DNA of 64,000 nt from assembly GCA_905178155.1 (NCBI GenBank), contig CAJINV010000004.1, forward strand, positions 7,818,771 through 7,882,770, written 5' to 3'. Positions 3,383-60,200 of this stretch are shown here, in pieces; within the stretch, counting starts at the first letter, position 1; each line of letters opens with the position of its first letter. The notes beneath the pieces were generated by a model. It searched no databases, had not been told where the DNA came from, and saw only the letters and a list, made by a program, of their open reading frames with translations. Made by a program: the position numbers and the translations under genes. The DNA is from Amoebophrya sp. A120 (taxonomy: Eukaryota > Protista > Dinoflagellata).

Positions 3383-3915
3383 AGACAGTGCAACCAAGAA
3401 CAAGTGCGGCCACATGATATGTTTCGATGAGGTTCCAACTGTATGATGATGAAGCACGACACGACCTACAGTTACAAGTTTGTGCTGACGTTTCCGATTG
3501 ATGAAATTGGTTTCGATTTTCAAATCTGCAAATGCCGAGGCAAAATCACATGGAAAATAGGAGGGCCTTTCTTTGCGGCCGTGCTGTTCAAGAACTTGAA
3601 TTCAGGTCTGTTTTGTGCGGGTCGTACAGGTACTTACTCAGGAGCGCAGCTTGCTGTCGGTTCTGGCTCGCAATCTTCGCTTGGACACACGAACATCGAG
3701 AGCGCCGTTATAAGCACTCACCTAACGCAAACGCAATCGTAGCTGTCGGCCCATTTTCAATATATTTCGTTTGATTTGAATAAAAGAATGTGGTTGTTTA
3801 ACGGTGTCACATCAGGCAGGCACAGGCAGCAAGACTGCATGACGTAGGAAAGAAAATGAGTACTAGATTGACATAGCCCCACTTCAACTACAAAGGTTCC
3901 ACACTGAAAAGACTT

Positions 3916-6900
3916 ATGGAACATGCTTCTTCTGGATTACATGCCACTGCCAGGCCCAGGGCCAGCACCTCTCCAAAGCCCACAGCTCCGGAGCCGGAAG
4001 CAGAGCCTGTTGGTACACTACGCGAAGATCATGAACATTCAGGACCCGCTTCCGGCCTCACGCCCGTCCGCCGCAGTCTTACGCCCGTCAGAGCGGCATG
4101 CGATGAGGATGCCATCGTACCCTACGACGGCCCCAGCGAGAGTGCTGCCTCGAGCTGCGCCAAGAGCCAGCAGGAGGAAGTTCATCACAGGCGGCCGCGC
4201 AGGAAGAAGCCGCTGGACCAGGAATCTTGGTGGGAGCAAATGTCGGGCGCCATGGCGGAAATCTTCGGCAGGAAACGGCCGAAGCCGCCCTGCGACGCGT
4301 TTGTCGCGGAAATCCACGATTTCGACGCGAAGTTGCGAAACGGAGACAGCGACACCGAGCCGGGAGATGACGACCCGCTCCCGGATGCTGAGCAGGCGTG
4401 GGAACGCCGACGGGCCAGTGCCAGTTCGCGATCCAGTTTGTCCGCGCAGGTGGAGGACCACCGCATTTTGCAGGCAGTGAACGCAACCAATCAGCAGTCT
4501 CCATTGCCACTAGCGAATGGCCCCGCGGCCGACGAGAACATTGAAGATTTCTTGAGTGCGCGCAGCGAGGCCTCCCGGAGGTCAGTCTTTTCGCCCGAGG
4601 AGGTTCGGAACAACAACAGCAATCAAGGGCCGCCGCGTAGAACAAGTCTACTCAACAGAGACGAGAACTCCACCGGTCGTGAAGGCAGCTCGGCGCTAGT
4701 TGCGGTGAGCGCGGAAAGTAGAGAACCACGAAAAAGCACGAACCGCTTGAAGACACCGGTGAAAGATCTCCGTGTAGAGCAGTCGGCGATCGTGTTGTTT
4801 GACGATTTTGAGGGCCAGCAGCAACAGCACGCGGTAGTCAGTGCGGCAGATCAAGATCCGAGCGAAGTAGTATTAAGCATGGGCGGTTATAATAATGGCG
4901 ACCAGGCGAAAGAACGTCGCTGGCTGCGGTTGCTGGCAACAGAGGACCTCGCGATGCAGAACTGCAAGACGACGCTACCGTACGACCCGGAAAGCGAATC
5001 CTACGCGCCGTTCGAGGTTTTGTTTCACCACCCCGAGATTCTCGAGCCGCAGAAGCAAGTGATGACTGCGATCCTGGAAGCGTGCCTGCAAGGCAAATCG
5101 TGCGTCCTGGAGTCCCCCACGGGCACCGGAAAGACGGCGGCGTTGCTCTGCGCGGCCCTGGAGGCGCAGCGGCAGATTGCGCGCAACAACAAGAGCCGCC
5201 GGGCGCCCCAGATCATCTACTGCACGCGGACGCTCGGGCAGGTGAACCAGATTCCGCGGGAGCTGGCGAAGAGCTGCTACCGACCCACGCAAGTGTGCCT
5301 TGGCCGACGCGATTTCAGTTGTGTCAACCAGCAGGTCCTCGACGCAAAGGGCCAAGGTAACCTGCAGACGAAATGCGTGGTCGCGCGACGAAATGCGCGA
5401 AAGGAAAAGGATCCCGCACTCAACAGAGATGAACGGCTAAACGACGACCAAGGGGCGTCGCAGGTCGCTGCGGTACCGACGTCGACTCCGACGGCGACGC
5501 AGCAGACCGAGCGCGACGCCAGCAAGAAGCTGATCTGCCACTGCGAAGAGCGGGTGAACAGTGCGAGGTTTTGGAAGGAACACTACAAAGACGTGCGGCC
5601 GCCGCCAGGCGACACGTCGGACTTCTACATCAGGGACATCGAGGACGGCAAAAAGTTGGCTCTCGCGAATTATTCGCGCGCGTCTCCGACGAGTAGGAGC
5701 AAACCGGTGGCACCGTCGTTCACCCCGAACGAAAGCCCCGATTTGGACCTAGAGGAGGACGCGGAGGAGGAGGAAGATAAAAATGTTGGTCACCGCAGTA
5801 GTCGCTTCGCCACTGGTTCTCGTGGAAAAAATGGTAACCAAGCGATTGTAGCTGCTGGTCCTGCAGCATCAACGAGTCAATTTCAATTTAATCCCGGCAT
5901 TCTCGCTCAACAGCGCCAAGTTTTTGACCGGCGGAACCACCCATTTGGTTTTTTCCCCGCACGACCAGAAGTTGGCCCGCGCCCACCAGCCCCAGAAGAC
6001 TACGCGGTCTGCAGCTACTACCTGAACAGGTATTTGCAAGGCACCGCGCAGATTGTCATCTGCCCGTACCAGTACCTGACGGACCCAAACGTGCGAGCGC
6101 CGACAAAGCTGGTTCTGAAAGATTCGATCATCGTCGTCGATGAGGCGCACAACATCGAGGGAACGTGCAGAGACGCGGGAAGCGTGAACTTTTCAGAGCA
6201 GTGGCTCGACTTCCGCAACGACGAAGTGGCCACGCGCAGCCCCCTTTTCACCCTGCACTACCACATGCTGGAATTCCGCTGGTTTTCGCGGGAAAAACCA
6301 AAACCGAAGGAGCGACAAGACCACGGCCCAGCGAATAATAATCGTGGTGCCGCACAAGTGCAGCAGCCCAACGAGCAGCAGGAGCCCACGTCAGATGATA
6401 GCAGCGACGGCGCGCCGAGTGAGGGCGAAGACGGGGAGGAGGAAGATTTGCTACAAGTTGATAACAGTGGGCGAGATAATTTTTTGGTATGCAATGACGA
6501 CACGGAAGCGCAGCGTCAACAAAGACTCGCGAATTTGAAGTGGTATCAGTGTCCCGTGACGGGAAAGCGGCGTGTGCAAGCGATTCCGAAGTGCAGGCAC
6601 ATGAGCCGGTACCCCAACGTTTGCCTGTGCAACTTGACGGTGGAAGAAGTCGAAAAAGAAGAGAAGTTCCGCGACTACCTGGCCTACGTCCTGAAGTTTT
6701 TCGACCACGTGCATACCAAGCTCATGAAGTGGAAGGCCGAAAGCAGGGGGGAATTGCTGCAGCACGAAAACGCGTCCAACGTTTCTACGGACCACATCGG
6801 GGATACTAAGTCGCTGGGGGACTACATGACGCCCCAGGATCCGATCTCTTTCATCCGAAAGCTGGGTTTGAAGGACATCTTGCCGACGCCACGTCCTGAG

Positions 6901-9546
6901 ACGACGTTTGGAGGTGCATTTGGAACTACGTCACGGAGGGAGAACCTCTTGGGCAATCCTCACTCGATGTTCCACGACCCTTTTGCTGCGCAGCGCGATT
7001 CTGGTGACCAACAAAGAATTCCAATGCAAACACAGGTGGGTGCGGGTGCTGTTCCGATCATGGGTACTGCTGCGGAAACCAATGTGTCTTTCAATTCAAG
7101 TGTTTCCTCGACACCGGCGTCGAGCTTTGCTGGGTCATTTGCCTATGGGTTCGGGAACAAAATGACTGACCGCTTTGGCAAAGCAAGCGATCGTCCGCCC
7201 CATGGTGTTGGTGCGTCTCAGTTCGAGCCGGTTTCGCAGTTCCATTTTCAAGGCAGACCTTCGTCTGCTGCGGCCACGGCGAGGACGCCCGCGTCTCAGT
7301 TTGGTACATCAGCGGCCTCGCAGGTAAGCTTCCCCGGCGGTGCAGCGTCACAGCGGTTTGTACCCACAACCTCGCAGGTTAATGTCCAAACGTCACAGTT
7401 TTATCGACCTCCGCCTTCGCACTCAGTTCCTGGTCCAGCTGGTCCTGGACAAGGACTGCTGCCTTGTCAACCACCGCCACCCAGCGCAGCTGCAGGCCCG
7501 TCAGTTCCGCAACAGCATGCAGTGTTCAACACAGAAGGTGCTGCTGCATCGCAGATGAAGAGTGCAAGAACAGCTGGCATTCTCGACTTTCTTCGCGAAA
7601 AATCAAGCGCGATGAAAAAGGGACAAAGACAACTCGCAGGAGCAAGGAAGCCGACCGATTCATCTTCTTACCAAGACAACTACCTGGAGCACGACAGCAT
7701 CCACGACTCCTCGTCGGACGATGACGATGATAGGAGTTGCGCTGCGCCCGATGCGAAGAAATTGAAGGTGGATTATAACACCAAGAACCCACATCACCAG
7801 AAGAAGAAGAAGATCCTCGTCGACTCTGCGGAGGCGGAGCTGCAGGCGGAGCTTGCGGAGCATCTGTTCCCGGTCTTGAAGTTGCGGCAGTACCTGGAGT
7901 GGATCAATATCGAGATGCTGCAGTCTGAGTTCAACTACTACGGCATGAAGAACATCATCGGGTACCGTAACAACCAGGAATTCCAGTGCGACGTCGACAA
8001 GAAGTGGTACCAGTTGAAGTTCGACCCGGACCTCGACCGCCGGAAGAAACTGCTGTGGCCGGACTTTTACCCGGTTTTCGAGACGTTTCGGGACCTGAGC
8101 CAGCGCGCGGAGCAGCTGGAGCGGTTTCTGACCTGGCGCGGCCACTACGCCGTCGAGTTCTGCGCGACGCGCAAGGGCGGTTTTTTTCCGGATACCGCCA
8201 AGCAGCACGTGACGGAGCGGTACGCGGGTGTACTGAAAATTCATCTGCTGCACGCGGAGGCGGTGTTTGACGAGATCGCGACCCAAGCGCACTCCATCAT
8301 CCTCGCGTCGGGCACCATGACGCCGTTGGAGGGCGTGACGAGCGAGCTAGGCAAGGCGTTCTGCGACCGGCAGCTGCGGTCCAATTACAACCGCGGCCTC
8401 TACAATCCCCTGGCCGCGAACCACGTGGTGACGCACGAACAGCTGCTCGTGCAGAAGTTGTCCAAGATGGTGCTCACGGGCCGGCCCTACAACGGCACGC
8501 GGAAGATTCTTTACAAGCCGAACAAGAGAGACCCCCGAGAAGACCACCTGCTGGAATTGGGGTGGAGCCTGGTCGTGCTGCTGCTGCAGCTTCCCGCGGG
8601 CGTGTTGGTCTTCTTCTCCACGTACTCGCTGTGCAAAGCCTGTTTCGACCTGTGGAGCGATGCGAGGCGGAGCTCACTGCGTGCAACGGTGGAGAGAATC
8701 TTGCAAGAAAACTACAGAACCCAGCCGGAAAAAGAGCGGGCAAGGATAGCAATGCAGCAGCAGTTCCGCAATGCAATCGGGCCGGAGAACATGAACCGCT
8801 TTGACACGTACGGGGGGAAATCGCTTCTGTCCGTACTGGAAGACATCAAGAAGCACGTTTCGTTCGAGACGAAAGAATCCAACGCCAAGACGCTGACGCA
8901 GGAGTACCAACGCGCGATCCAGGAAAGGGGGGCGGCGCTGCTGTTTGGCGTGATGCGGGCCAAGTGCTCCGAGGGAATCAGCTTCAACGACGACAACGCG
9001 CGGGCGGTGATTCTGATCGGCTTGCCCTACCCGAGTAAAGAGGCTTCGGAGGTAAAATACAAACAGAGATACAACGACCAGAAATCGACGAGACCAACAA
9101 GGCCCGTGACGGTGGCGAAAAATCTTAAACCTGCTCCTGTCGCATCCTCGTCGTCGTCAAAGAATCCACCTGGGAGGAAGAACACTGGTAGAAAAAGAAC
9201 GCTAGTAGTGCACCCCTCTGCAGCTGTAATAGTTGCTGATGAAGGAGCTCCTGCTGCAGCTGAAGAAAACAATACTGAGTCCGAGGATCATCTCCCGCCG
9301 TTGATGATTTCGGGCAACCAGTGGTACGAGCAAGAGTGCTTTCGCGCGGTCAACCAGGCCTTGGGGCGGTGTATCCGGCACAAAAACGACTACGGCTCCT
9401 TGATCCTCTTCGACACCCGCTGGGACGAGAAAAAAAGATCCCTAGCGCCTTGGCTGAAGACCATTGGCATCCGAGACGAAACCGAATCCTACGCCCAATT
9501 CCGAATGAAGTTGAAACTGTTCTACGAAGCATTGCGAAAAAAGTAA
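3916..9546 (+). CDS. BRIP1: FANCJ/BRIP1-like (XPD/Rad3 family) Fe-S DEAH DNA helicase, single exon
   Basis: Motifs LESPTGTGKT, IIYCTRT, CPYQYL, DEAHNIE, ILASGT, SEGISFNDDNARAV, RAVNQALGRCIRHKNDYG; Cys residues at Fe-S-like positions. RTEL1 is the alternative assignment. Confidence 0.85.
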   Translation: MEHASSGLHATARPRASTSPKPTAPEPEAEPVGTLREDHEHSGPASGLTPVRRSLTPVRAACDEDAIVPYDGPSESAASSCAKSQQEEVHHRRPRRKKPLDQESWWEQMSGAMAEIFGRKRPKPPCDAFVAEIHDFDAKLRNGDSDTEPGDDDPLPDAEQAWERRRASASSRSSLSAQVEDHRILQAVNATNQQSPLPLANGPAADENIEDFLSARSEASRRSVFSPEEVRNNNSNQGPPRRTSLLNRDENSTGREGSSALVAVSAESREPRKSTNRLKTPVKDLRVEQSAIVLFDDFEGQQQQHAVVSAADQDPSEVVLSMGGYNNGDQAKERRWLRLLATEDLAMQNCKTTLPYDPESESYAPFEVLFHHPEILEPQKQVMTAILEACLQGKSCVLESPTGTGKTAALLCAALEAQRQIARNNKSRRAPQIIYCTRTLGQVNQIPRELAKSCYRPTQVCLGRRDFSCVNQQVLDAKGQGNLQTKCVVARRNARKEKDPALNRDERLNDDQGASQVAAVPTSTPTATQQTERDASKKLICHCEERVNSARFWKEHYKDVRPPPGDTSDFYIRDIEDGKKLALANYSRASPTSRSKPVAPSFTPNESPDLDLEEDAEEEEDKNVGHRSSRFATGSRGKNGNQAIVAAGPAASTSQFQFNPGILAQQRQVFDRRNHPFGFFPARPEVGPRPPAPEDYAVCSYYLNRYLQGTAQIVICPYQYLTDPNVRAPTKLVLKDSIIVVDEAHNIEGTCRDAGSVNFSEQWLDFRNDEVATRSPLFTLHYHMLEFRWFSREKPKPKERQDHGPANNNRGAAQVQQPNEQQEPTSDDSSDGAPSEGEDGEEEDLLQVDNSGRDNFLVCNDDTEAQRQQRLANLKWYQCPVTGKRRVQAIPKCRHMSRYPNVCLCNLTVEEVEKEEKFRDYLAYVLKFFDHVHTKLMKWKAESRGELLQHENASNVSTDHIGDTKSLGDYMTPQDPISFIRKLGLKDILPTPRPETTFGGAFGTTSRRENLLGNPHSMFHDPFAAQRDSGDQQRIPMQTQVGAGAVPIMGTAAETNVSFNSSVSSTPASSFAGSFAYGFGNKMTDRFGKASDRPPHGVGASQFEPVSQFHFQGRPSSAAATARTPASQFGTSAASQVSFPGGAASQRFVPTTSQVNVQTSQFYRPPPSHSVPGPAGPGQGLLPCQPPPPSAAAGPSVPQQHAVFNTEGAAASQMKSARTAGILDFLREKSSAMKKGQRQLAGARKPTDSSSYQDNYLEHDSIHDSSSDDDDDRSCAAPDAKKLKVDYNTKNPHHQKKKKILVDSAEAELQAELAEHLFPVLKLRQYLEWINIEMLQSEFNYYGMKNIIGYRNNQEFQCDVDKKWYQLKFDPDLDRRKKLLWPDFYPVFETFRDLSQRAEQLERFLTWRGHYAVEFCATRKGGFFPDTAKQHVTERYAGVLKIHLLHAEAVFDEIATQAHSIILASGTMTPLEGVTSELGKAFCDRQLRSNYNRGLYNPLAANHVVTHEQLLVQKLSKMVLTGRPYNGTRKILYKPNKRDPREDHLLELGWSLVVLLLQLPAGVLVFFSTYSLCKACFDLWSDARRSSLRATVERILQENYRTQPEKERARIAMQQQFRNAIGPENMNRFDTYGGKSLLSVLEDIKKHVSFETKESNAKTLTQEYQRAIQERGAALLFGVMRAKCSEGISFNDDNARAVILIGLPYPSKEASEVKYKQRYNDQKSTRPTRPVTVAKNLKPAPVASSSSSKNPPGRKNTGRKRTLVVHPSAAVIVADEGAPAAAEENNTESEDHLPPLMISGNQWYEQECFRAVNQALGRCIRHKNDYGSLILFDTRWDEKKRSLAPWLKTIGIRDETESYAQFRMKLKLFYEALRKK

Positions 9547-10130: not shown

Positions 10131-12054
10131 ATGGTTGTCCCCGCCTCCAACCTTCCCACGCACGCGGGCCCCGTTCCGCCCCCCAAAAACACCATCGACG
10201 AAGATTTTCGCCATGCGGAGAGCGGCTGGCGGTTCCGCGCGGTCCAGTCCCCCATGCTGGAATCGCAGGTGGCGGAGACTATCGCGAACGACGCGGGAAT
10301 CTGGCCCCACCCCTGCATGATATTCGACACGTTTTTGCAGGTATAGGAAATTCTAATTCATCCTGATGTTGGTGGTGTTTATCTGCAGAACATGAAAATC
10401 CAATTTTGAAAATTTCTGCACGCGTAGTTCTTCGCTGGGGAAATCGGCTCATGATGACTTTTGTTTTCAATCATACTTATGACTCTACATATCAATCACC
10501 ACAACTTCCAGGTTTACGATGCTGCCGACAACCTAGTTCTGGACATCAACACGCGCGACGCCTTACGCGGAACCCGTATGGATTTGAGACAGAAACAGGA
10601 GAGCACTGGCAGCAAAACAGAAACAACAAAGACAGCTGGTGTTCCTGAGTTAAAAGTTGTCGCGGAGTCCAGCCATTTGCTTTCCACCAAGGTCGTTTGC
10701 CAGCACGCCGAGAAGTGGGGGTCCAGCCGGGATTTGACCATGGCGAAACAGATCGAGACAGACACCGACTGGACTTTCTCTTCCACCTATTGCCCTACAG
10801 TGATGAATTTAAATTCTACGAAAGACTCCGACAGCCCAACCACAACAAACACCTACGAAACCGACGAGTCCCTCCCCCAATTTTCCGCGAACCAGTCTCT
10901 CCTGCCCATGGCGTTACTGACCCAGCAGCAAAATAACCCGATCGAGTTTTTCACCGCGATTACCTTTTACGAAGACGAATTGGACGACGAGGGGAGTGCG
11001 GCTTTCTCTTTGAAGATCCGGGTGCACAAGCACTTTTTTTTTCTATTACTGCAAAACGAGATCCGGGTGGACAACGTGCTGGCTCGGAAGGTGGAGACGA
11101 TATGGATTGCAAAAATGTCTGGGTCTGGAAAAGTGTAAACTTGTCATGCAGATTTTCCATGACCTCTGGAATGCAGATGCATGGGGTCTGGAATGCGGGA
11201 CTTAGCATGACAGAATCTGCGAGGTCTCTGCCATGCCTATCCTGCATGAGAAACTCCCTTCCAACTTGGTCAAAAGTGGGCAGCTTTTGGCTCTCATGCA
11301 ACACAGATTTTTGCATGCTTCAGATTTACCATGACAAGTTGCCGCCTTCCAGACCCAGACATTTTTGCATTTGATAGACGAGGTATTTCGGCAATTTGTG
11401 CTTCATGAACAAGGAAACGGGGAATAAATGGAACCGGGGGATCCGGCTCATGATGCCGGAAGGAGTTGTGCGGAAGTCTTCGACAGGTGGACAACTCGGT
11501 GAAAAGAACGAGTCGGAAGTTCTTGTTGAGCAAAGTCCAAATTATACCGTCGACACCAGCTGCTCGTCTCCGGCGAAGGAGGTTGAACAACAGCACTCTG
11601 TGATGCAACAAGACCGCATTCTGGAGCCAGGTTCTATCTTACGCGAGTGGAGCTACAGCGAGGTGTCGTTTCCGCAGCTCCGACAGCGGGGGGACCTGAA
11701 TTCCGCGGAGGAGATGGTTTTTTGCCTGCAGAAAGTGAACGAAAAGGATTTGATATGCATTGCAAATATGTCTGGGTCTGGAAGAAAGCAAACTTGTGAC
11801 CACGCGCATTTCACAACACATAAAAATCCGTCATGCAGAGGCAGCAAAAGCTGCCGACTTTCTCTCACCAAAATGGGGCATTTGTCATGCGGATTCGGCA
11901 TTGCGGAAGCTTCTCGAAACCTGTAATGCTAGGGCTTCCATGCCAGACCTTCTGTGTCATGCACAAGCAGCATGACTCTTCCAGGCCCAGACATATTTGC
12001 ATTTGATATTTGATTACAAGGGACGTGACGATATTCGACTGCAAGGCGGCATGA
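10131..12054 (+). CDS. TIPRL: TIP41/TIPRL-like PP2A regulator, 4 exons
   Basis: DWTFSSTY and FYEDELDDEG...KIRVHKHFFFLLL..IRVDNVLARKVET|RYF. One GT-AG intron 10341..10511 and two introners; stop at 12052-12054. Confidence 0.85.
11101..11376. mobile_element. Introner family A
   Basis: Family A TIRs; direct repeat GACGA/GACGA. Confidence 0.92.
11754..12008. mobile_element. Introner family A
   Basis: Family A TIRs; direct repeat TTTGA/TTTGA. Confidence 0.92.
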
Positions 12055-38135: not shown

Positions 38136-38964
38136 AACGCACTGAAAATTTTCACCCTGAATCTTCTTCGTACGAGGAAAACGAAAATGAGAATTATATG
38201 GCAAGCGAGAGCAATGAGCTGTATGTGTATTCTGTAGTTTAACAGTCAGATGTGGTGTTGTATAGTATTCGGCAGTGTAGTTTCAGCTTCATTAACATAG
38301 TGTGATCCACCAGTAATAAAAAATGGAAGTTCAATGGACTGGTATCTTCAAATTGAGAGCAAAAAATCCTATTTATTGGTCGCAAATACGGGGATACTGC
38401 TTACACCAAGTCGTGGCTTCTCAAGATCTCTCTTGGCGATGTTTGCAAGGATAAATGATCATGACGAAATGACTACACCGACACTGATCCGAGTCTTCCC
38501 TTTTGCCGGTTGCTATCTCGACGGTCGCTCTACGTGGACGAAGTGGCACTACAAATGTGACGCAATTTTTTATCGAGAGAAGTGGCTCTACTTCTTCATT
38601 CCGCATTTCAGTGAAACTACAAAAAGGTAAAAGCAATCTGGCTGTGACTGTATATTAGCATTACGAGATAAAAACGAAATCCGCCTCTATCAGGACGCTC
38701 TTTTACAACTTGACACCTTGCTCGAGCATTTTGTTGCCCACACAAGGTAGGTTCTGTCTCTGTTCGGGAAGACTGGAGAAGAAAATCATACCAGCAGAGC
38801 AAAGAATAGAAGCGCAGTGCTTTGGAGCTTCTTTATCATCTCGCTCCCAGACAAGCAGATAAGGAAGGGAAAACTGTTGCTGCTTGTGTTGAGCTACCTA
38901 GTCCTAAATTTAGCAAGTTCTTGGACTTCTCACCTGGCAAGTAAGTGAGTCAAAGTATAACATC

Positions 38965-39819
38965 ATGGCATCCCTCCGTCGCGTACTTGCCGCCGTCGGT
39001 GCGGGCATGTCATCTCTCCACTTCCGCAGAGAATTACTTTTCGGCGCGCTCCTCCTGGGTGGGCGTGGTGCTTTTGAATCCTCTGGGATGAATGCCAGCC
39101 ACTCTGTTTATCCGTTCGTGGTTGCTGTCCAGGTGCGGCCATCTCGGGAGCCAAGCCAACTTTTGCACAAGATAAAAAGCAAGGATCTGGTCGGGGCGAC
39201 AGATCTTTTTTTCGAAATGTTGAAAGACGGGCCGCTTCTACCCACTCCAGCAGAGTATAAGGAACTGCGACGTGCACTTTTCGAGATAAAGGATTGGAAA
39301 GGTGCTGAGAAGGTGCGCCATGCGTATCCGTATTTGTCGAAGGGTGTCAAGGCGCCGCAGCCGTGTGCAGGTTTGGAAGGAAAGACGGAGCTCGAAGCGA
39401 GTTGCGGCGGCAGCGATGGCCAAGAACAGCACAGGGAGCAGGCAGCTGTATCTGGTAAACAACAAGGGACCACAGCCGAGTATTACCTCCGTCAAGTGAA
39501 GTGCGTAGAGGAAATTCTTTCCATTATGAATAGAAAGGGGATCGAGCCGGACATCTCTTGCTACAACACCCTACTGAGCGCACGCGCCAAGGCTGGCGAC
39601 GCGGCGGGCGCGTTCGCGGTGTTGGAAGAAATGGAAGCCGCGGAGATCGTGCCCGACCTTGCCACCTACAGCACCCTGCTGGAAGCTTGCGCCGGCACAC
39701 AATACGGCGAAATCGTTCTTGACATCATGAAAATTCAGGGGATGATCCGCCGCGACTGCAACGAAAAGCAGGCCAAAGAAGAATTGCTACGAAAAATTGC
39801 GAAGAGTGGTGGGCACTGA
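38965..39819 (+). CDS. Pentatricopeptide-repeat (PPR) protein
   Basis: MNRKGIEPDISCYNTLLSARAKAGDAAGAFAVLEEMEAAEIVPDLATYSTLLEACA is a typical P-type PPR; the N-terminus resembles a targeting peptide. Confidence 0.8.
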   Translation: MASLRRVLAAVGAGMSSLHFRRELLFGALLLGGRGAFESSGMNASHSVYPFVVAVQVRPSREPSQLLHKIKSKDLVGATDLFFEMLKDGPLLPTPAEYKELRRALFEIKDWKGAEKVRHAYPYLSKGVKAPQPCAGLEGKTELEASCGGSDGQEQHREQAAVSGKQQGTTAEYYLRQVKCVEEILSIMNRKGIEPDISCYNTLLSARAKAGDAAGAFAVLEEMEAAEIVPDLATYSTLLEACAGTQYGEIVLDIMKIQGMIRRDCNEKQAKEELLRKIAKSGGH

Positions 39820-47056: not shown

Positions 47057-48000
47057 GTAGCAGGCAGCACTTACTGCTATGAGCGGTGCTGTCATCTGAT
47101 GTTCTGAAGTGATTGACAAGTAGAATTTGTGAATGTACAATAAGTTGGTGCGGTCTATCTCTATTGCGTGGTTTCTATGGTTCACATTTTCCGAAAGCCA
47201 GCACCGAAACTAGAAGCTCTGAGTGCAGGCTGTACACTATCAGTACGAGTTTTGCGACCTTGACCGTGAAATGCACAAGCGTACACTATGAGTAAATTCA
47301 ATACTGTTTCCAAGAACTGCGTCTGCTAAACTTAAGTGCACATAAAAGACGAAAAAACCCGAACCCAAATCAAAGCCGTAAATCAAATTGCGACGTCGAC
47401 TCCAAAACGTAAGTGTTGTAGTTGCAAGAACTTTCAGAGCGAAAAATCGCAAAGAGGATCTGGTTCTGCTCGAATGGAGATCATTTTTCCAAAATGTTTT
47501 CCCGCACGACCGCAGATTGGGTCTTCAAAAGAAACGCTCGGTCATTTGCTAAAACTTTTTCTTCTTTCGAAAATCGATCCGAAGATATCATCTCCTCCCA
47601 AATCTGCTTTATTCCAAATGCCGTTCAAATTAGATTTTTATTCCACCATAATATTTCTTTTTTCATTTATTTTTCGATCCTCCAACCAAATTGAGTATCA
47701 GGTCCAGAAAAAATAGTCAGTGAAGTAGAGACGGATGACCACATAGTAAAACTATACGATTTCTGCAGTGAGAACAGTGAGTCGATAGATTAGGTACTAG
47801 AACTACCGAATTGAAAAGTAGAACTAGAACCGCCCACGGACTAACACATAAGGTAGTTGTGGCTCCTGGTGGCGAGCGCTTGTCTAGTCGTACTAGCTGT
47901 GCTACTAGTGCCAGAACCAACAGTAAGCGTTTCTTTTCGACTTTACTTTTGCTCGGTTGTACTACTATATCGCAAACCTTCAAAAGCATCTTCCGCGAAA

Positions 48001-50350
48001 ATGATGCAGCCACCGACAGAAGAGTTCCAGACCTCCGAGGATTGCGAGGCCATCGGGACTTTTGCAGAAATGGAGATGAAAAGCGACTTGTTAAGGGGAG
48101 TTTACGCATACGGGTGGGAAAGGCCATCCGCAATTCAGCAGCGAGCCATCGTGCCAATCTTCAAAGGTATAGAGAACCGAGTAGGTGGCACGTGACGATG
48201 ATTTTTGGCATGATGGTGCATAAAGAACTGCAGTTGTTCTTGTTGTATCAGTCGATAATCGATCAACGAGTATAACGAAGATTGGCGTAGTAGTAATCGT
48301 GCACCAGGTTATTGTCGAAATGGGAAAACTTCGAAAAGGAAAACTTGAATTTATTGCCGTGAGTTGATCGTTTATTCACATTAGCATTACATCTTTCACA
48401 ACAGGTCGCGACGTAATAGTGCAGTCCCAGTCCGTATCAAATGTAAAAATGTCTGGGTCTGGAAGATTGGGAGACTTGTCATGCATATTTTCATTTTGCA
48501 TGACCCATGACGCCTGTAATGCATGTCCTACCATCACAGATTTTTAGAACCCTTCCTGAAGCCTATTCCGCATGAGAAATGCCCTCTCCGCGTAGCACAA
48601 ACTGTGGTCCTCTTGCTGGTCATGCAATACAGATTTTTCTGGAATCCAAATGCAGCATCACAAGTTGCATTCTTCCAGACCCAGACATTTTTACATTTGA
48701 TAGTCCGGTACGGGAAAGACCGCGGTTTTTTGCTTGGGGGCACTCCAGGTTGTCGTGAAGAAAAACCGTTACCCGCAGGTAAGAAGTAGATCAATATGAT
48801 TTTGTCATCTTCAACATGCTGTTTCGTTTGTCAACATCTACTATTGCTGGAAGAGAAGTACTATTCTTGCAGCTGGGGAAGAAGTATCCTATGCAGTGAA
48901 GAATTTTTGTTGTTCTACTTCTAGGACGTCGCTACGAGTAAGAAAACGTTGAATTTGTCAACATCGCAATCAAAATGTTGAAAACAATCAGTAAAAAAAC
49001 GAGTATCACTTATCGCAGGCGCTTCTCCTCTCTCCCACACGCGAACTGGCAGAGCAGTCACAGAAGATTTGCGTTGCCCTCGGGGATTACATGAACATCT
49101 CGGTCCACTGCTGCATCGGTGGCAAGAGAATACCTGACGACATTCGCGCGCTGGAAGCGGGTTGCCATGTGGTTTCCGGGACGCCGGGGCGGGTGTTTCA
49201 CATGATCCAAGACCGGCACCTGAACACGAAGGGCATGAAAATGCTGATTCTTGACGAAGCAGATGAGCTGCTGAACAAGTAGATATTTGATAATTTTCAT
49301 GGTATTTATGCGAAAATTTCAAATCTTCATCGTGTCAGACTCATGGGCGATGTTGTAAGCAGCCCCATTATTTTTTATCTCTACCAGCCCTACTATTCTT
49401 CGCAGGACAAGGTCGTAAATTTATTAAAATTAGAGCTACCATCAATAATCCAAAAATCACCCAGGGGCTTTAAGGAGCAGATTCACGACATTTACCGGTT
49501 CCTGCCTCCGGGTGTGCAGGTCGTCTGCGTGTCCGCAACTCTGCCGCACGAAGTTTTGGAAATGACCCAGAAATTCATGAACAACCCGTTTCGCGTGCTG
49601 GTCAAGCGCGATGAGCTTTCGCTGGAGGGGATCAAGCAGTTTTTTGTCGCCGTGGAACGCGAGCAGTGGAAGTACGACACGCTCTGCGATTTGTATGACA
49701 CCCTGACGATAACGCAGGCGGTGATCTTCTGCAATACGCAACAGAAAGTGGACTGGCTCGCGGGGAAGATGAGGGAACAGAACTTCACGGTATTCTTAAC
49801 TTGTCATGCTAAAGAAGAATCACATGCAAAAATCTGTGTTGCACGATTATACCAAAAGCTGTGCACAACTTTCGACCAAGTTGAGAGGGAGTGTCTACTC
49901 ATGCAGGATAGGCACGATAATAGAGACCACCTCACAGAATCTGTCTTGCTAAATTCTGCATTTTAGACCTCAGGGGTCATGGAAAATCAGCATGACAAAT
50001 CACTGCAAACTAATATTCTTCAGGTTTCCTCGATGCACGCGGGTCTGGACCAGAAGGAGCGGGATTACATCATGAACCAATTCCGGTCCGGGCAATCCCG
50101 AGTCTTGATTGCCACGGACGTTTGGGGCCGTGGTCTGGACGTGCAGCAGGTGTCGCTGGTGATCTGCTACGACTTACCCACCAATCGTGAGCTGTACATC
50201 CACAGAATAGGCCGATCGGGGCGGTACGGCAGGAAGGGCGTCGCGATAAACTTCGTGAAAGAGGAGGACATCAGAATTCTTCGCGACATAGAGCAGTTTT
50301 ATTCGACGCAGATCGACGAGATGCCGATGAACGTTGCGGACCTGATTTAA
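48001..50350 (+). CDS. EIF4A3: eIF4A-III (exon junction complex DEAD-box helicase), 6 exons
   Basis: [24 protein letters not shown]|[86 protein letters not shown] introns 48167..48404, 48779..49018, 49279..49464, 49790..50023, plus one introner. Confidence 0.93.
48435..48702. mobile_element. Introner family A
   Basis: Family A TIRs; direct repeat GTCCG; inside the Walker A motif. Confidence 0.93.
49790..50023 (+). mobile_element. Family A introner relic now a canonical GT-AG intron
   Basis: Body matches the interior of 23783..24043; both TIRs eroded; begins G-TAT, ends CAG. Confidence 0.85.
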
Positions 50351-50890: not shown

Positions 50891-53800
50891 ATGGCGTCCA
50901 TTTGTTCGCACGGTTGCACCAAGATCATGAAACGTGCCCCCTTGAATATGAATGTCATCTCCGGTCTACTTCTGCTGCTCTGCACCCAGAGCCTCTTCCT
51001 CGTCTTCCCCCTTGCCGCCGCGTGGCACCTGGAGATCCTGGTTACCTCCCCCTGGTTATCGTACAGAAAAGATGAATATCAACTGTAAAAATGTCTGGGT
51101 CTGGAAACTTGTGATGCTGGGTGGCGTATCATGAGGAGGCCACAAGTGCTCGCTCAGCATGACAAGTTTTTGAGCTTCTAGGTGTTGCCTATTCTGCATG
51201 ACAAACTGCGTTTCTACATGACAGAAAAGTGGCGGTCTTGGGTAACGTGCATGACAGATTTGAGAGTCATGCCAGACAAGCATGACAAACATGCACTCTT
51301 CCAGACCCAGACATTTTTACACTTGATAATGAAATGCAGACAGGACAGATTTGTAAAATGCAAAAAATTATTCGAAAAATCTGTCATGGGCGAGCCCGTA
51401 GCGTGCTGCTTAGGATTATCTGCGATAGAGATCAACATTTGTGCAGCGCGTGCCGGTTTCTTGTGTATTTATTTTTGCATTTTACATTACAAATATGACG
51501 ACTGCCTGCTTTTTTCTGTTTGATACTGGCGCAATGAAGAGCGACGGAACATCCTTCGCAACGCGTTGACGAATTGCAAAACGGTTGGGGTCGCTACCCA
51601 GCACAAGGTCACCTACCACTTCTTTATGGGCAACGTGAACGACACAAGACCCAGTTTCGAGGAAGACACCAACCGCGTGCTCTTCGCCGCCGGGCGGTTT
51701 CTGGAAAATGGAGAAACCCTCTCGTCCATCGGACCCGCGGTGGAGGAAAACCAAAACGACCTGGGGGTCAACACAGGAGAGCACCAGCAATTTTCCGACG
51801 CGGTGGTAACTACCGACGATGAGGCGTTTCTCTACGGGTTGCGGGTGAGAACAAACCCAGCAGACACATCAAGTCCTGAAATAGTACAAAGAACTCATCT
51901 CCTGCAGGGGGACAACAACTACAGGGATCTTGTCGTCCTGAACGGCCCAGATTTAGATCCCCCAGTGCAGCGCGACGTCACGTACGTTTTGGAAAGACCG
52001 ACCAGCCGCGCGTTCCGCGTCGCGTACGGGACCAGGTGGGTCTACCTCTACCTGCCCAGCACGGACTTTATCTTTTATCTGGACGACGACTCGTTTCTGA
52101 ACGTGCCGAGGTTGTTTCAACTCCTTGACGGGGTTGCGGTCACCGAGCAGCGTAACATGATGGAAAGGCAGGAAAACGGGGATGAAAACCTGTCCTTGCG
52201 GTACCGAAATGAACGGGATAGAATGCAGTCGATCGTGGTTGGATACATGATGGCAACGGACGTGGACATGGGGCGATACGACGTTTGTGAAATGTAGGTT
52301 AATATATAGATATGTGTTATTCTTGTAGAATTTTTACTTTTTTCTTTGTGTGAGATTTTTTCTTGCTACTTCTCCACTAAGAGTACTTCTACGTGAGTTT
52401 CCTGTACAAATTTTTGTTGTGGGAGGTAAAGAAACACTCTCCGCTCGAATAGAACCTTAACCTCTGGGAAGATTGTATGTTAACAACCGTCAAAACTTCG
52501 ACTGTCCCACTCATCCGACATCACCGCCCCAGGTGCGATCCCTGCGAGCGCTGCCTGAACGACCGTGCGCTGAAGAACTTCTGTGCACAGTTGCCGCACC
52601 TCTCCCTCTATGTATTGCAAAAACGTCTGGGTCTGGAAGGTTGCAACTTGTAATGCTGATTCTGGATCGTGCAAAAATCTGTGTTGCATGAATGCCAAAA
52701 GCTGACCACTTTTGACAAAGTTGAGAGGAAGTTTTATCATGCAGGAAGTTTATCATGCAGCATAGGCATGATACGGATCTCACAGAATCTGTCATGCTGG
52801 GTCCTGCATTCCAGACGACAGGGATCATGGAAAATCTGCATGACAAGCCTGGGAATCTTCCAGACCCAGGCATTTTTGCATTTGATACCCTCGGCGGCTG
52901 CCTGGCGTACATGAATACGTGCAAAATTTACGGGACGGAGACACCCTTGCTGGATTGCATCCGGTATGTATTGCAAATATGTCTGGGTCTGGAAGGTTGG
53001 AACTTGTAATGCTAGCTCTCCATAGTACCTAGGAAGTCTGTATTGCCTAAATCAACAAAAGTCGCAGCCTCTTTTGGAGGAAACACGCAGTTTCATCTCA
53101 TGCGGATTGCCTATGAGAAAGCGTTTTGAAAAGTTGTCATGCCAAATTGAATATTCGGAACTGTTTCCTTCATCCACATTTTCGCATCACAAGTTTCCAG
53201 TAGACCCAGACATATTTGCATTTGATATCCGGGACGCGCAAATGGAGGCAGCCCGTCTCGCGGAGTACTTCGGTACGAAAAAATCTCCGCTTTGGCTTAT
53301 CCCGTGTAAAAACATCCCCACCCCATACCTGTCATGCAATTCTGCATGCCAAGAAAGTTTCTCATGCGGAGCTCTATGAGAAGCATTTTTTATTCGTGTT
53401 ATGGAATTTGTGATGCTAGGATCAGTTTGCTGTGCTAGATCTGTGATGCTTCTGAACTAGCTAAACAGGGTTACACTACAAGGGCAAAGAACTTGTCATG
53501 CGAAACAACGAAAGCTAGTTGATTTGTCTAGCAGATTTCCCATCTTGACTCTGGTGTGGGGACGTTTTTAATCAGGATATGGCTGCTCGGCATGGGCTGG
53601 CTTTTCGGGAAAAGGGTGATCAACTGGATCGCGCGGAACGCCGCGGATTTGAAAAAGCGCGGCGCCGCCGACTTATCCTGAGAAAAAAGTGTTGCAGTTA
53701 AGTACACACCCTGATGAGAGTGAGAGACAAGCAAGACAGACAACCTCTGGCATGCAGGAAAAAATGCTTGCCCGCCTCATATGATTATCCGTGTTTTCGC

Positions 53801-56708
53801 TTATAGTTTTAGTTATAGTCTGCGCATCTCAGGTATTTTCCTTTTCCATGTCGGGTAGCAACTTTGTGATGCAGAAACTCCAACACCAACAAATGGAAGT
53901 GTGTCACTGTAAAACTTTTTTCCTGTGATGCGACTTGATTCTCGGTTACTGGCTGGTTGGGATGGAAGATCTGAATTGGGTGGACACCGGGCCGTACGGA
54001 AATTTTCGCTTTCACGACTACCCCATGCGGGGGAACACGTTCACCCGGGCCTGCCACGACGAAACCATCCTGGTGCACCGCATGACGCCGAAGCGGTGGG
54101 AGCGGGATTTCGATTATGGCGCGCCTAAAGTAGCTTTTTCAAAAGTACTAGAATTTTTTTTTTGATGTTTGTGCGGCACGTCGGCAACTAGCTATACCAA
54201 ACTAGATAGAGTTAGCTAATCAAACTAGGTGGAATTTTGCATGCGTAACCAGTTGTCTAACTCAGAGGTAGTAGCTTGCTCGTCTTCCACGAAGGGCTGG
54301 CCTACGGATCTGTCCGGAACGCTATCGGTACGTCGTGGCGAGCTCGGACATGTTTCTGGTTGCGCGCAAAGTCATCTACTCCGGTTGAAACAACAGGTGG
54401 GCCATCTCATGACGTTCGGCGTCTACTACGAATTTGCGAGCAAGTTCGCAATACGCAAGTGCGGAGGCCACCTGCTGCGGACCGCAGCGAAAAGAGTAAC
54501 GGGCACGCAGGCCTGCCCCAACACGGGGCCCCCAGAGGGGCCGCGAAGTGGCCGGCAAAGTGGCCTACGAAACACCCCCCCAAAAAATCTCCAATACCGA
54601 TGTAACTACCCCTCCCGAAGAGGCCGATCAGTTGGCATCTGCGGAGGGGGGCAAACTCGGACGAAGTTTCCCAATAGATTCGCAGAGGTTTTTTTCCCAT
54701 GTTCGACAGCTAATGCGCCTTCGCAGTGTAGGTAGCGCCATCGTGCGCCAGTGTCAAGATCTGGCTGGATGTCCGGAACCAGGTATCGGAGGTTGGTAAA
54801 TTCCGCACGGTTTTCGTCGTTTCGGGACCGTACACCTAGCCAGAGCTCCGAGTAGAGGACCCTCAGCAAGGCTTGGCGACGGGACTGCTCTGGACAGATC
54901 CGTAGACCAGAGCCTCGAAGAGTACCAGCCTATTTACCTCGCGGCGCCGACGTGCTTTTGCACTTATTCGCAATGGACTTCTCATGCATATTCAGAATTG
55001 CCTAGTTTTATTAACTAGGTTCTGGCACTGAAGCGCTTGCAAAAAAAAAATTCTAGTACTTTTAAAAAAGCTACTTTAGGCGCGCCATATCGATAGAGAA
55101 ACCTGCAGTTTAGACTGCGCGTTTATCGAAATGAAAAATCCTTCCACCCATTAAATTTGTGATGCTGATTTGTGATCACAAGTCATGTTGTCATGCTAGA
55201 AGGGCAAATGGGACGCGGGCTGTAGTGCTGGCTGGCGTGGCAAAGCCTTGCATCTACTTCAGTGCCTCTGACAGAAGGCAATTGGAAGGGGGGAATCTCA
55301 TGACAAATTACCTGCAAGGTGCGGTCTTGTTTGCCAAACAAGACCGCAACTGCGTCTCTTGCCCTTGTAGCAATACAAGCCTTACGCAAGACATCCAGCA
55401 TCACAAATTTCCTGTACGACACTGGGAGGGGGGATTTTTCCTCGCAATAGCGTTGGAGACGGACCCGGAGTTGTCGGACGAAGACAGGCAGAAGATCCAG
55501 GAGGAAGAGGAGAAGGAGGAGAGACTATCAAAGTGAAAAATCCCCCCTCCCCACATCGAAAAGGTATGTTTCTGAAAGTTTGTGTTGCTGATTTGAGCTC
55601 ACAAATCACGTCTGTCTTGCAAGAAGACAGGCGCAGAGGCTTCCGCACCATTATGGAAGCGATTTGGCATGCTGTTGCGCCTAGGGGGCACCCGTTTGCA
55701 ATGCTAAGCAACTAGACCTATAAGTACGCCCCTACCTAGGCCGAGGATCTGGCTGCGATGCCTTACTGCAAGACAAATCCGATTTGTGTACCCAAATCCT
55801 GCATCACAGATTTCCATTTCGATATGGGGAGGGGGGATTTTTCCTTTTGATAGAGACGGAAAGAGTTGGAAATGGCGGACTCCTTGCGCGAACTGGAACT
55901 AAACCCCACCGGGGTGCTATGAAAGTGCAGGACAACTCCCCCTCCGCCTTCATTTGCGCCGTTGCATGAACAGCAACACAAGCGCTGGCAAAGGTCCAGC
56001 TTTTGCATGACAAATTCCTAGGAGACTGTAGTGCAGTTCTGGATCATTCCGGAATCTGTCATGCAAACAGTGCTAACAGGCAAAGGGTGGATTTGGGATT
56101 TTGCATGACAAACGAGGGGGAGGGGGAGCTGTGCACATTCATAGGTGAAGCGGGAGACGCGAATACGCGACGACGATGGGAAGGCTCCTACGGGTGGCGA
56201 GGGAGGACCAGGAGGTGGCAGCCACAGCAGTAATCTCCCTCTGAATCTTCACATGGAGGCGGAGGGGGAAATAGATATGGAGGCGGAAGGGGAACAACAA
56301 ATGGGGGCGGAGGATGAACACATTGGACAGAGTGCGGAAGTATCCTGTGCAAAAGTATCGTACTCCTATTGCAATCATGCATTAAAAATCCTTGTCTTCG
56401 GGTCAATCCGCATTACAAATTTTATTTCTCATGCTGAGGAAATCGAAATTTGTAATGCATTTATACGAGTGCGATACTTCTGCAGTGCATAGGAAGTAGA
56501 TGAGATCGACTTCATGAGCGAGAAACTAGACGATAGTTTGGATGACGCCTTTGTCACGCAAGAGGACGAAAGTGATCACGACGAAAATTTTTACCCAGAA
56601 CCCTCGTCGTACGAGGAAAACGACGAGAATGTTAAGACTATAGAGAATAATGAACTATATTCTGCGGTGGAGCCTTCTGTAACTCTAACTACAGATGTGC
56701 TGTTGTAG
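50891..56708 (+). CDS. GT31/beta-1,3-galactosyltransferase-like glycosyltransferase with acidic C-terminal tail, 12 exons
   Basis: N-terminal hydrophobic segment; spliced ILVTSPW|RNEERRNILR; YRDLVVL; FIFYLDDDSFLNV (DxD); WL|LGMGWLF; AAD|LILGYW. Eleven introners (one nested) and a GT-AG intron 52294..52532. Confidence 0.75.
51057..51525. mobile_element. Outer introner (family I) containing a nested family A element
   Basis: tatcgtacagaaaa...atttgtaaaatgcaaaaa pairs with tttttgcattttac...ttttttctgtttgata; direct repeat CTGGT/CTGGC. Confidence 0.82.
51077..51328. mobile_element. Introner family A, nested
   Basis: Family A TIRs; direct repeat ATGAA. Confidence 0.92.
52609..52887. mobile_element. 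Introner family A
   Basis: Family A TIRs; direct repeat CCCTC. Confidence 0.92.
52965..53227. mobile_element. Introner family A
   Basis: Family A TIRs; direct repeat TCCGG. Confidence 0.92.
53298..53579. mobile_element. Introner family E
   Basis: Family E TIRs; direct repeat TGGCT. Confidence 0.92.
53674..53930. mobile_element. Introner family F
   Basis: Family F TIRs, ends ATG; direct repeat CGACT. Confidence 0.88.
54115..55089. mobile_element. 975-bp TIR element acting as an intron
   Basis: ~48 bp near-perfect TIR tatggcgcgcctaaagtagctttttcaaaagtactagaatttttttt; perfect direct repeat TCGAT; removal gives ERDFD|RETCSLDCA. Confidence 0.92.
55124..55449. mobile_element. Introner family C-like (diverged)
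   Basis: tatcgaaatgaaaaatccttccaccca ... tgggagggggatttttcctcgcaata; direct repeat GCGTT. Confidence 0.87.
55526..55852. mobile_element. Introner family C
   Basis: Family C TIRs; direct repeat GAGAC. Confidence 0.92.
55918..56143. mobile_element. Introner family G
   Basis: tatgaaagtgcaggacaactccccctcc ... ggagggggagctgtgcacattcata; direct repeat GGTGC/GGTGA. Confidence 0.88.
56341..56491. mobile_element. Introner family B
   Basis: Family B TIRs; direct repeat GGAAG. Confidence 0.92.
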
Positions 56709-57250: not shown

Positions 57251-60200
57251 ATGACCCCAACGAGGACCACTTCCGACGACCCTTCCACCCAGCTCTCGCG
57301 CGAGTACCTGGTCCACCAGGGGGCGGCGGTATTATGCCTGAATTGCCCAACAAGCGACAACAGCGGATTCCAGTTCGGAATCGACAACCACCTCTGGCAT
57401 ATCAACTGCACAAATGGCTGGGTCTGGAAGATTGCAACTTGTCATGCTGTTTTTGGACTCTAAAACAATTTGTATTGCATGACCAGCAAGAGGGGCGCAG
57501 TTTGTGATAGACGGACAGGGCATTTCTCATGCGGAAGCATCAGGAAGGGTTCTAAAAATCTGTAATGCTAGGGCATACATCACAGACTATCATGGGTCAT
57601 GAGAAACATGCATGACAAATCTTGCATTCTTCCAGACCCAGACACTTTTGCAGTTGATATGGCAGACCGGCCCGAAATTTATGGGGGTCAAGTTCATCCC
57701 GCCGGGCGTGCATTTCATCTACTACAGCAACAGCAACCTGGGCGACATGGTGGAACGGTGCGGGTTTTTTGTGCACTTGAAGCCGCAGGAAGTGTTGGTC
57801 CGCAAATGGGATCAAAAAACGGAAACGTTGGAGAAGTTAACGGACCTCGACGAGGAGGCGAGGTATGTCGATGGCGTGAGGCATTGGGATATGAAATGCA
57901 AAAGTGTCTGGCTCTGGAAACTTGTGATGCAAGTCAGTCAATAACAAACGCACTTTAATGCGCCGCTTAGCATGACAAGATGCTTCGTGCTTCTGTGCTG
58001 CGTATTCCGCATGAGAAACTGCGTTTTTGCATGACAGGCGAGAGATGCTATTCGTGGCCCCGCAATACAGATTTAAGGGCCATGCCAGATCAGCATGACA
58101 ACTCTCGCAATCTTCCAGACCCAGACATTTTTGCAATCCATATGGGACTTTGATCTCAACCTCGGCGAGTACCCGCTACTCAACGCCGAATCCACGGTCC
58201 ACTACGACCAGTATCGAAAGGAAAAATCCCCCCTCCCCATATCAAAACGAAATTGCTGATGCTGGATTTGTGTAGAGAAATCAGCTTTGTATTGCAGAGA
58301 GGCATTGCGGCCAGATCCCCAGGCTAGGTAGGGGCGTATGGGTCTAGTTGTTCAGCATGGCAGACGGCTCGTCTTTAGGTCCACCAGCGTGACAAATCGC
58401 TTCCATAATGAGGCGGAAGCTTCTGCCCTTGTCTTCTTGCAAGACAAATGTGATTTGTGGCCTCAAATCAGCAACGCAAATTCTCGGAAGCATGCCGGTT
58501 CGATATGGGGAGGGGGGATTTTTCCTTTCGATAACCAGTGGCGGGAGATCACGCGGCACATCAGCAACGGGGTCGTGAAAAAAATCGAGCCGGTGCATGC
58601 GCTGATCGGGACGAAAAGGAAAGATTTGGTGGTGGAGGAAGAAGTGTTGAACCTATCGGGCGACAGCGATAAAAAAACCAAGATTCAGGAAAGCATCGGG
58701 AGCTGGAAGGCGCCGGGGTACGTGCGGGCCGCCGCGGGCGCGGGGGTAGATAGTCTTGAAGGGCGGGAAATAGCGGACAGAAAGATTGACGAAAAAGTTG
58801 TAGCCCCCGCAGATGAGGTATTGTTAAAGAAGGACAACAAGGAAAAGGACAATTATACCGCTGACCATCTTGGGAAAAGCCAACCTGCACCCGAAAGAAG
58901 GGAGCCATCAGGAGGGGCCACTGCGGTTGTTCCACCTCGTCCCGCCCAACCCCCAACATCCGCGGCGCAGCAGCAGCGAGACCTAAAGGAGGATCAGAAA
59001 GAGTACCAGACCTCGGTTCAGAACAACTTCGGCAGGCTCTTTTTCTCCACAATTCCCGCCACGACTTTGTCCGGGGAGGAGCTGTCGCCGGCCGAGATCA
59101 CGAAACGGCACATGGACAAGTCCCACGTACTAGCGAAGATCATTGAGCATGATATCCTGTGCAAAAGTATCGTACTCGTATTGCAATTGTGCATTACAAA
59201 TTTTTTTCTGAAGCTAAATTCGCATTACAAATTTTATTTCTCATGCTGAGGAAATTTGTATTGCATTTATACGAGTACGATACTTTTGCAGTTCATACAC
59301 TAATACGCGGACTTAAATCCGCACTACGTCAAGCACAAAATGGCGAAAAAGGAGCAGAGTAAAAGCACAACTAAAGCAAGTAGTTCTACTATTACTCGAC
59401 CGCCAGCTGGTGCAACTACAACATCATCTACTACACCATCACGACGAGAAGAAGAAGAAGAAACGTTCTCAGAGATGAAGAAAATAAATTCTACTACGGC
59501 AGCATCAGCTTCAGCAAAAGACAGTACGACCGAAAGTGCAAAAAATCATCCCTCTAGTACTGCCAAGAAAATCAACCAGCAAGAATCGATGCGGAAGATG
59601 GGGGAACAGAATATGAAAACCTCCTCTGCTCTGTCGAAGCAGGAACAGCATTTCCAGCTTCTCGCCTACCTGGCGCTTCTGGGCGAGCTGGAACTGGCCT
59701 TTGTCGCGTTTCTGCTCGGACAAAATTACGACGCTTTCGAGCAGTGGAAGAAGTTGCTGAACCTCTTCTGTTCCTGCACGGAATTGATCGCGAAGCAACC
59801 GGTGTTGTACCTGGAGTTTCTGCGAACGCTCTACGCGCAGTTACAGCAGTACTGCAAAGAAAATTCCCCCCTCCCCATATGGAAAACGCATCCTTGTGAA
59901 AATTTGTGATGCAGATTTGTGACCACAAATCAGGTCTGTCTTGCAAGAAGGCACACTCAGGCTGTCCGCCACGTTATGCAGGGGATTTGTAATGCTGTAA
60001 GGCCTACAGGGTAGCCGTCTACCATGCTAAGCGCCTGCACCAATAGGCCCCCTCCTGGGCTCAGGATCTGCGTGCGTTCCTCTACTGCAGCACAGATTTG
60101 ATTTGTGTATCCAAATCCAGCATCAGAAATTTCGTTTTGATATGGGGAGGGGGGATTTTTCCTTTTGATAAGCAGGCTCCGGAGGACTTCTTCATCGGAG

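Follow-up and report, generated by a model that had tools for sequence, protein, structure and literature searches.

The locus described here lies in a 64,000-nucleotide stretch of the genome of the marine parasite Amoebophrya sp. A120 (the window, to whose positions all coordinates refer), where a forward-strand gene at 50891..56708 (outer coordinates approximate) is annotated as GSA120T00023167001 and encodes a 641-aa protein, P0001. Between two of its exons, at 53931..54109 (+) and 55090..55118 (+), sits a 975-bp inverted-repeat element at 54115..55089, to which no strand is assigned. The upstream exon is matched with no differing letters by record 4 of X4, a set of assembled contigs labelled RNA by guess, and the downstream exon, which is 29 nt long as its joints are listed (54109->55090 and 55118->55450), is aligned in the orthologues. 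A 255-residue query made from the exons found four matches among 1221 candidates: P0001 itself, 100% identical, the A25 orthologue P0002, P0003 from a third close relative, and one Perkinsus protein. As all four proteins give weak, sub-threshold matches to Pfam Galactosyl_T (E=0.0017 in the host protein, below the curated cut-off), the gene is likely to encode a GT31-like glycosyltransferase. P0002 and P0003 align across the element junction without an indel, and the host residues KRWERDFD and RETCSLDC on its two sides correspond to ERWANDFERDTCLLDC and KRWAQDFDAETCVLDC in the two orthologues, respectively. It had been considered beforehand that the exons downstream of the element might belong to another gene; since both orthologues align straight through the junction, they are part of the same one. 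Joined at the X4 joints, the exons form a single open frame in which 588 of 589 compared residues are identical to P0001, itself a transcript-guided model and possibly not independent of X4.

Several neighbouring genes can be recognized. Directly 3' of the host gene is an AAR2-like gene (window about 57600-59900), and P0003 combines the host-gene orthologue and AAR2 in one predicted protein, indicating that the gene order is conserved and that P0003 is probably a merged gene model. On the other side, at 48000-50350, lies a DEAD-box helicase gene (Helicase_C, E=5.5e-26), which from its sequence we take to be of the eIF4A-III subfamily and which contains both GT-AG-type introns and TAT..ATA elements. 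Farther away are a DEAD_2/Helicase_C_2 helicase ORF at 3877-9546 (1889 codons, without the motif TGTNATGC considered below), a TIP41-like ORF at 10458-11138 and a PPR ORF at 38914-39819.

The element begins with TAT and ends with ATA, and its terminal inverted repeats (TIRs) occupy 54115..54164 (left, +) and 55040..55089 (right, -). Each arm is 50 nt long, and 49 of the 50 positions are complementary, the single mismatch being at position 26. The element is flanked by two copies of TCGAT, at 54110..54114 and 55090..55094 (both +), a 5-bp target-site duplication that is exact only at a flank length of 5 when lengths of 2-11 are compared. The coordinates, the 975-bp length, the TAT and ATA ends and the perfect TCGAT repeat given in an earlier note on this DNA all proved exact; its TIR is indeed near-perfect, but measures 50 nt rather than ~48 bp. 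In a scan of the window with 14-nt seeds and arms 400-8000 bp apart, this was the sole TA-ended inverted-repeat pair with a perfect 5-bp duplication, and the window contains one copy. Its first 25 nt find no better ungapped match than 12/25 among the 90 ends of the window's 45 short elements (see below), and its AAA begins at position 13, with C and T at positions 11-12, where 94-96% of the 90 other ends have A. The ends are predicted to pair with a probability of 0.98 (0.51-0.98 for ten other elements), and the fold of the whole element has z=-8.5 relative to 20 shuffles. A structured RNA gene was considered and rejected, since the sole match, to mir-422, scored 25.8 bits where 90 is the cut-off. 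A TIR 20-mer had no match in viral contigs, and its one match in a metagenome contig (L001) was set aside as chance, since it stops at 20 nt in an AT-rich and unrelated sequence.

Record 4 of X4 (1379 nt, depth 11.9) skips exactly 980 nt at 54110..55089 (+), that is, the element plus one TCGAT, through the joint 54109->55090, just as the earlier note had proposed for a 980-nt intron; the joint rests on this one contig, with 29 nt on its short side. The same record skips eight neighbouring introns, the nine joints have a common depth of 11.9, and the coordinates of the record fit one molecule. It also joins across a plain GT..AG intron (52293->52533), so the record is derived from mRNA. Five bases fit either side of the joint at 54109->55090, so the cut can slide by 0-5 nt within the duplication; as none of the six equivalent options is GT/GC..AG, the element fails to provide canonical U2 intron ends. 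The expectation that the host frame resumes after the element holds when 980 nt are removed but not otherwise: if the element is retained, a stop follows 18 codons on, and removal of 975 nt also leads to an early stop. All nine TAT-type joints examined skip the element plus five bases. Two spliced elements have imperfect duplications, and in both the fifth base found in the mRNA is that of the right copy; the 5' cut therefore lies one or more bases before TAT. The raw-read RNA runs X9-X11, with 3-6 reads per run, left the exons uncovered. Most likely, then, splicing takes these 980 nt out of the pre-mRNA as a non-canonical intron.

To place the element among its neighbours, we searched for TAT..ATA pairs whose flanking repeat matches at 4-5 of 5 positions. 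This census yielded 50 rows and, with four two-element rows and the 975-bp element dropped, retained 45 single short elements (151-327 bp, median 255). Weak elements escape it: RNA joints show four, at 51057, 53674, 55124 and 55918, that are absent from the census. The 975-bp element was the only long one found, four times as long as the short-element median. What sets it apart is a motif. Strict TGTNATGC/GCATNACA occurs 145 times in the 45 short elements (12.9 per kb), with TGTNATGC at offsets of 33-34 and 41-43, mirrored at both ends, and common to short elements that have different TIRs; it was absent from one GT-AG intron and a 5.7-kb ORF that were checked, and we found no mention of it in the main text of PMC7789003. 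In the 975-bp element there are 0 strict matches, where 12.6 would be expected at the short-element density, and one relaxed match, TCTCATGC at 54980, which bears out the earlier remark that it has few or no motifs. Because an element without TGTNATGC is nonetheless removed, the motif is dispensable for removal. Its mirror symmetry suits a DNA-binding site, and TGTNATGC is more likely a candidate site at which the transposase of the short families would bind at the DNA level.

The window offers other observations on these elements. A 252-bp element at 51077-51328, with its own ATGAA duplication, is nested inside an older one at 51057-51525 that has a CTGGT/CTGGC duplication, and X4 skips both as a single 474-nt joint. 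The element at 53674-53930 is spliced although it ends in ATG rather than ATA (a U-G pair is possible), and thus a terminal ATA is not strictly required for removal. This qualifies the earlier suggestion that TAT/ATA plus a hairpin may suffice, with which the 975-bp element is compatible. Finally, a TAT..ATA element at 55918-56143 has an imperfect GGTGC/GGTGA duplication, and its joint can equally be read as GT..AG at +1, an example of how TAT..ATA elements can pass as canonical introns.

The interior of the element, which is GC-richer, contains a second inverted repeat, its left arm at 54297..54318 (+; offsets 183-204 from the left end, with looser pairing over offsets 148-206) and its right arm at 54889..54910 (-; offsets 180-201 from the right end). 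The arms pair at 20 of 22 positions, a score reached by 0 of 1000 Markov nulls. They are set ~180 nt in from either end, almost in register with the termini, and share their axis with the outer TIR. We considered and rejected a single 200-bp TIR: between the TIR and the inner repeat, at offsets 51-147, the alignment is no better than chance (253/1000 nulls), so that the element ends are bipartite at most. A nested TAT element was also rejected, as the borders of the inner repeat show neither TAT..ATA nor a duplication and its axis is that of the outer TIR. A feature that might encode a protein is an open frame of 168 codons, stop to stop, at 54229..54735 (+), a length reached by 1.5% of 1000 Markov shuffles. 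Relatives of the element in X4 differ from this frame by six non-synonymous codons and one synonymous codon, at only eight differing sites, and over those same eight sites their differences are mostly non-synonymous in every frame with more than one change. Coding constraint is thus unseen on these few sites, and the frame is likely not coding.

Searches for a transposase gave a consistent picture. Pfam, applied to six long and 19 short frames of the element and to six read-through frames, returned nothing below E=0.18; NCBIfam, applied to 11 element frames, gave one irrelevant match at E=0.044 and nothing at E<0.04; and phmmer, with the 168-codon frame, returned 0 matches among 1.84 billion representatives. 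The ESM Atlas held no usable match to that frame, two other element frames had 0 matches among longer proteins (weak evidence), and protein searches of viral contigs revealed no relative of the element frames. Outside the element, none of the 24 frames scanned, among the window's 47 of at least 170 codons, contained a transposase. The earlier observation that the internal ORFs have no transposase motif therefore stands in all six frames by Pfam and NCBIfam.

The element is probably not the only member of its family. X4 records 5 and 6 match its interior with 6 differences in 99 nt and 10 in 178 nt, respectively (~94% identical), which implies that other copies exist and that not all of them are recent. 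Record 5 also has A for G at 54164 and skips or replaces 99 nt at 54195-54293, in the left subterminal region, which makes it a variant of the element's family in length or in sequence. The earlier note had called the element young, which is supported only in part: 11 of the 45 short elements have a TIR as clean over the first 28 nt, the 5-bp duplication is perfect in 34/45 (the census itself required at least 4/5) and imperfect in 11/45 (for example those at 19249, 21256, 21565, 25409, 31350 and 42375), and the X4 relatives are ~6% divergent.

How else might these observations be explained? One alternative is that the element is not spliced at all: exact splicing and a pre-insertion (empty) allele yield the same joined sequence, and thus a polymorphic or very recent insertion would look just as it does here if both the transcript and the gene model came from cells with an empty site. 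No X4 contig covers the bin 54782-54962, and the interior pieces that X4 does contain are from divergent copies. However, efficient splicing would equally leave the interior uncovered, eight other TAT-type elements of the host gene likewise leave together with five extra bases, the X4 exons show no letters differing from the window, and the public gene model on the A120 assembly GCA_905178155.1 calls the element an intron; we regard this alternative as very unlikely. More weight, while still on the improbable side, can be given to the proposal of the earlier note that the element arose directly, by internal deletion, from an autonomous transposon that is still present in A120 and retrievable with the TIR. 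A second in-register inverted repeat is typical of bipartite transposon ends, and this one accompanies a long TIR, a length four times the short median, a GC-richer interior and an open frame longer than nearly all shuffles provide; a similar family, fam38, has been described with integrase-like ORFs (PMC12130899). Against it stand the empty Pfam, NCBIfam, phmmer, longer-protein and Atlas searches, the mostly non-synonymous differences among the relatives (at eight sites) and the statement of PMC7789003 that no transposase was found in A120. Without a transposase trace or a protein relative, the proposal is left with architecture as its ground.

A further possibility, to which we assign an even chance, is that the element belongs to a family already catalogued in A120, for instance fam74, fam169, fam38 or fam196 (PMC12130899), or any of the 1,954 described in PMC7789003, in which case it would be nothing new. 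The families fam38, fam196 and fam74 come close to it in the features given below, introns of 40-1000 nt were clustered in PMC7789003, and the 99 nt skipped or replaced in record 5 suggest that length variants may exist. On the other side, 975 bp is listed in 0 of the 58 A120 rows of the PMC12130899 supplement, though several rows state none; neither the TIR motifs nor the host gene identifier occurs in the supplements of PMC7789003 and PMC12130899 that were searched, which carry no family sequences; and fam38 is said to hold Copia/Gypsy-like ORFs, of which none was detected in the element.

The reading that we favor, and consider quite probable, is that a TIR element with a 5-bp target-site duplication and no transposase of its own inserted into a coding exon of an A120 gene and is removed as a 980-nt non-canonical intron. 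The element is real and well formed, and it is very likely a true intron, of the published kind. In the mechanism we envisage, a DDE transposase acting in trans would have cut the target with a 5-bp stagger and inserted the element, whose termini and duplication most resemble those of the integrase-related IS3EU/GingerRoot group. Pairing of the two TIRs, as predicted for the RNA, would bring both copies of TCGAT together; a relaxed host splicing machinery would then cut each copy once, at matching offsets, so that the element leaves together with five bases and the exon regains its original sequence. The insertion would be tolerated because the paired ends present both duplication copies to the splicing machinery.

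Given the lack of TGTNATGC and the second inverted repeat ~180 nt inside each end, the element is likely to belong to a low-copy family that is distinct from the short ones and has a mobiliser of its own. The earlier suggestion that it is the best bait for the whole system is therefore doubtful: its TIR and subterminal region are unlike those of the short families, and integrase-like ORF remnants are already on record for fam38 (PMC12130899). Used as bait, it would probably retrieve the parent of its own family, not that of the abundant short introners. It is tempting to go further and speculate that there is a second, independent lineage of TA..TA/5-bp-duplication transposons, with bipartite ends of ~205 bp and an integrase-like transposase, whose autonomous element the TIR would retrieve, and that any TAT-started hairpin with a 5-nt repeat may be spliced independently of U1, regardless of family, length or motifs. 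On this view the element turned into a clean 1-kb intron as soon as it inserted. We hold this to be a long shot; if true, a structure-guided splicing route would be exploitable by any such transposon.

Two questions about Amoebophrya introners are open: what mobilizes them, as no transposase was found in A120, and how introns that are not GT-AG are excised when U1 snRNA was not detected (PMC7789003). The element alone answers neither, and similar long families are already in print (PMC12130899). Its value is as a natural control, since TAT..ATA, the 5-bp duplication and the end hairpin are all that it has in common with the short families. As it appears to be precisely removed over 980 nt, it separates the signals for removal from those for transposition, and suggests that TGTNATGC is one of those for transposition. 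What is added here is the lack of mirror-placed TGTNATGC, the second in-register inverted repeat and the ~94%-identical relatives in X4.

Among known systems, the IS3EU/GingerRoot transposons share with the element TA..TA termini, TIRs and a short fixed duplication without a strict target (PMC10045372, PMC6839031). Their duplication is usually 6 bp, in contrast to the 5 bp seen here and in the short elements, and GingerRoot elements are 3.9-12.9 kb long with TIRs of 100-150 bp and an integrase-like DDE transposase (PMC6839031, PMC10045372), whereas no transposase was found in the element. With the 6-bp duplication unmatched and a transposase lacking, we do not file the element under IS3EU/GingerRoot; intron-forming behavior is also absent from the passages of PMC10045372 and PMC6839031 that we drew on. 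In the literature that we covered, no link is made between Amoebophrya introners and this group, an autonomous partner or a splicing mechanism, and deposited family sequences may include this family. The nonconventional introns of euglenids, with TIR-paired ends, TSD-like junction repeats, borders that are not GT-AG and a likely MITE origin (PMC11282704), resemble the element in all of these respects and in their wide length range. They differ in belonging to an unrelated lineage and in their internal CAG/CTG TIR consensus; in euglenids, excision yields circles.

Closer comparisons are found within A120. There, fam38, fam196, fam99 and fam86 are low-copy families of 0.8-1.6 kb with TIRs of about 50-84 bp (PMC12130899). 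The first of these has 5 copies of 808-810 bp, TIRs of 49-53, a 5-bp TSD, TA/TA termini and ORFs with remnants of Copia/Gypsy integrase-like homology (Gozashti et al., 2025; PMC12130899); fam196 is 811 bp with TIRs of 54-57 (supplement of PMC12130899), and fam74 has 49 copies, a 5-bp duplication and ~1060 alignment columns, as read from unlabelled cells of the same source. Compared with fam38, by description, the element is longer (975 bp) and gives no Copia/Gypsy-like Pfam match in any frame. The introner elements of A120 as a whole number 29,850 and fall into 1,954 families; their inverted repeats start with TAT and their direct repeats are 3-5 nt long (Farhat et al., 2021; PMC7789003). The element lies in the same organism and, like them, has a TAT-started inverted repeat, a 5-nt direct repeat where it meets the exons, non-canonical ends, a hairpin and no internal transposase; like them, too, it is probably repeated in the genome. 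It departs from them in length (975 bp, where the non-canonical introns of A120 average 240 nt), in its 50-nt TIR, where the published inverted-repeat motifs are 8-20 nt, and in an A-run that starts at position 13 rather than ~11, the published pattern being TAT, seven variable bases and at least three A (PMC7789003). From the window's short families it differs in having a second inner inverted repeat and no TGTNATGC, yet its ends, duplication and 980-nt skip make it part of the same TAT..ATA/5-bp-duplication intron system, as the earlier note had held. The element is most likely one of the transposon-derived introns already described in A120, and an unusually long one.
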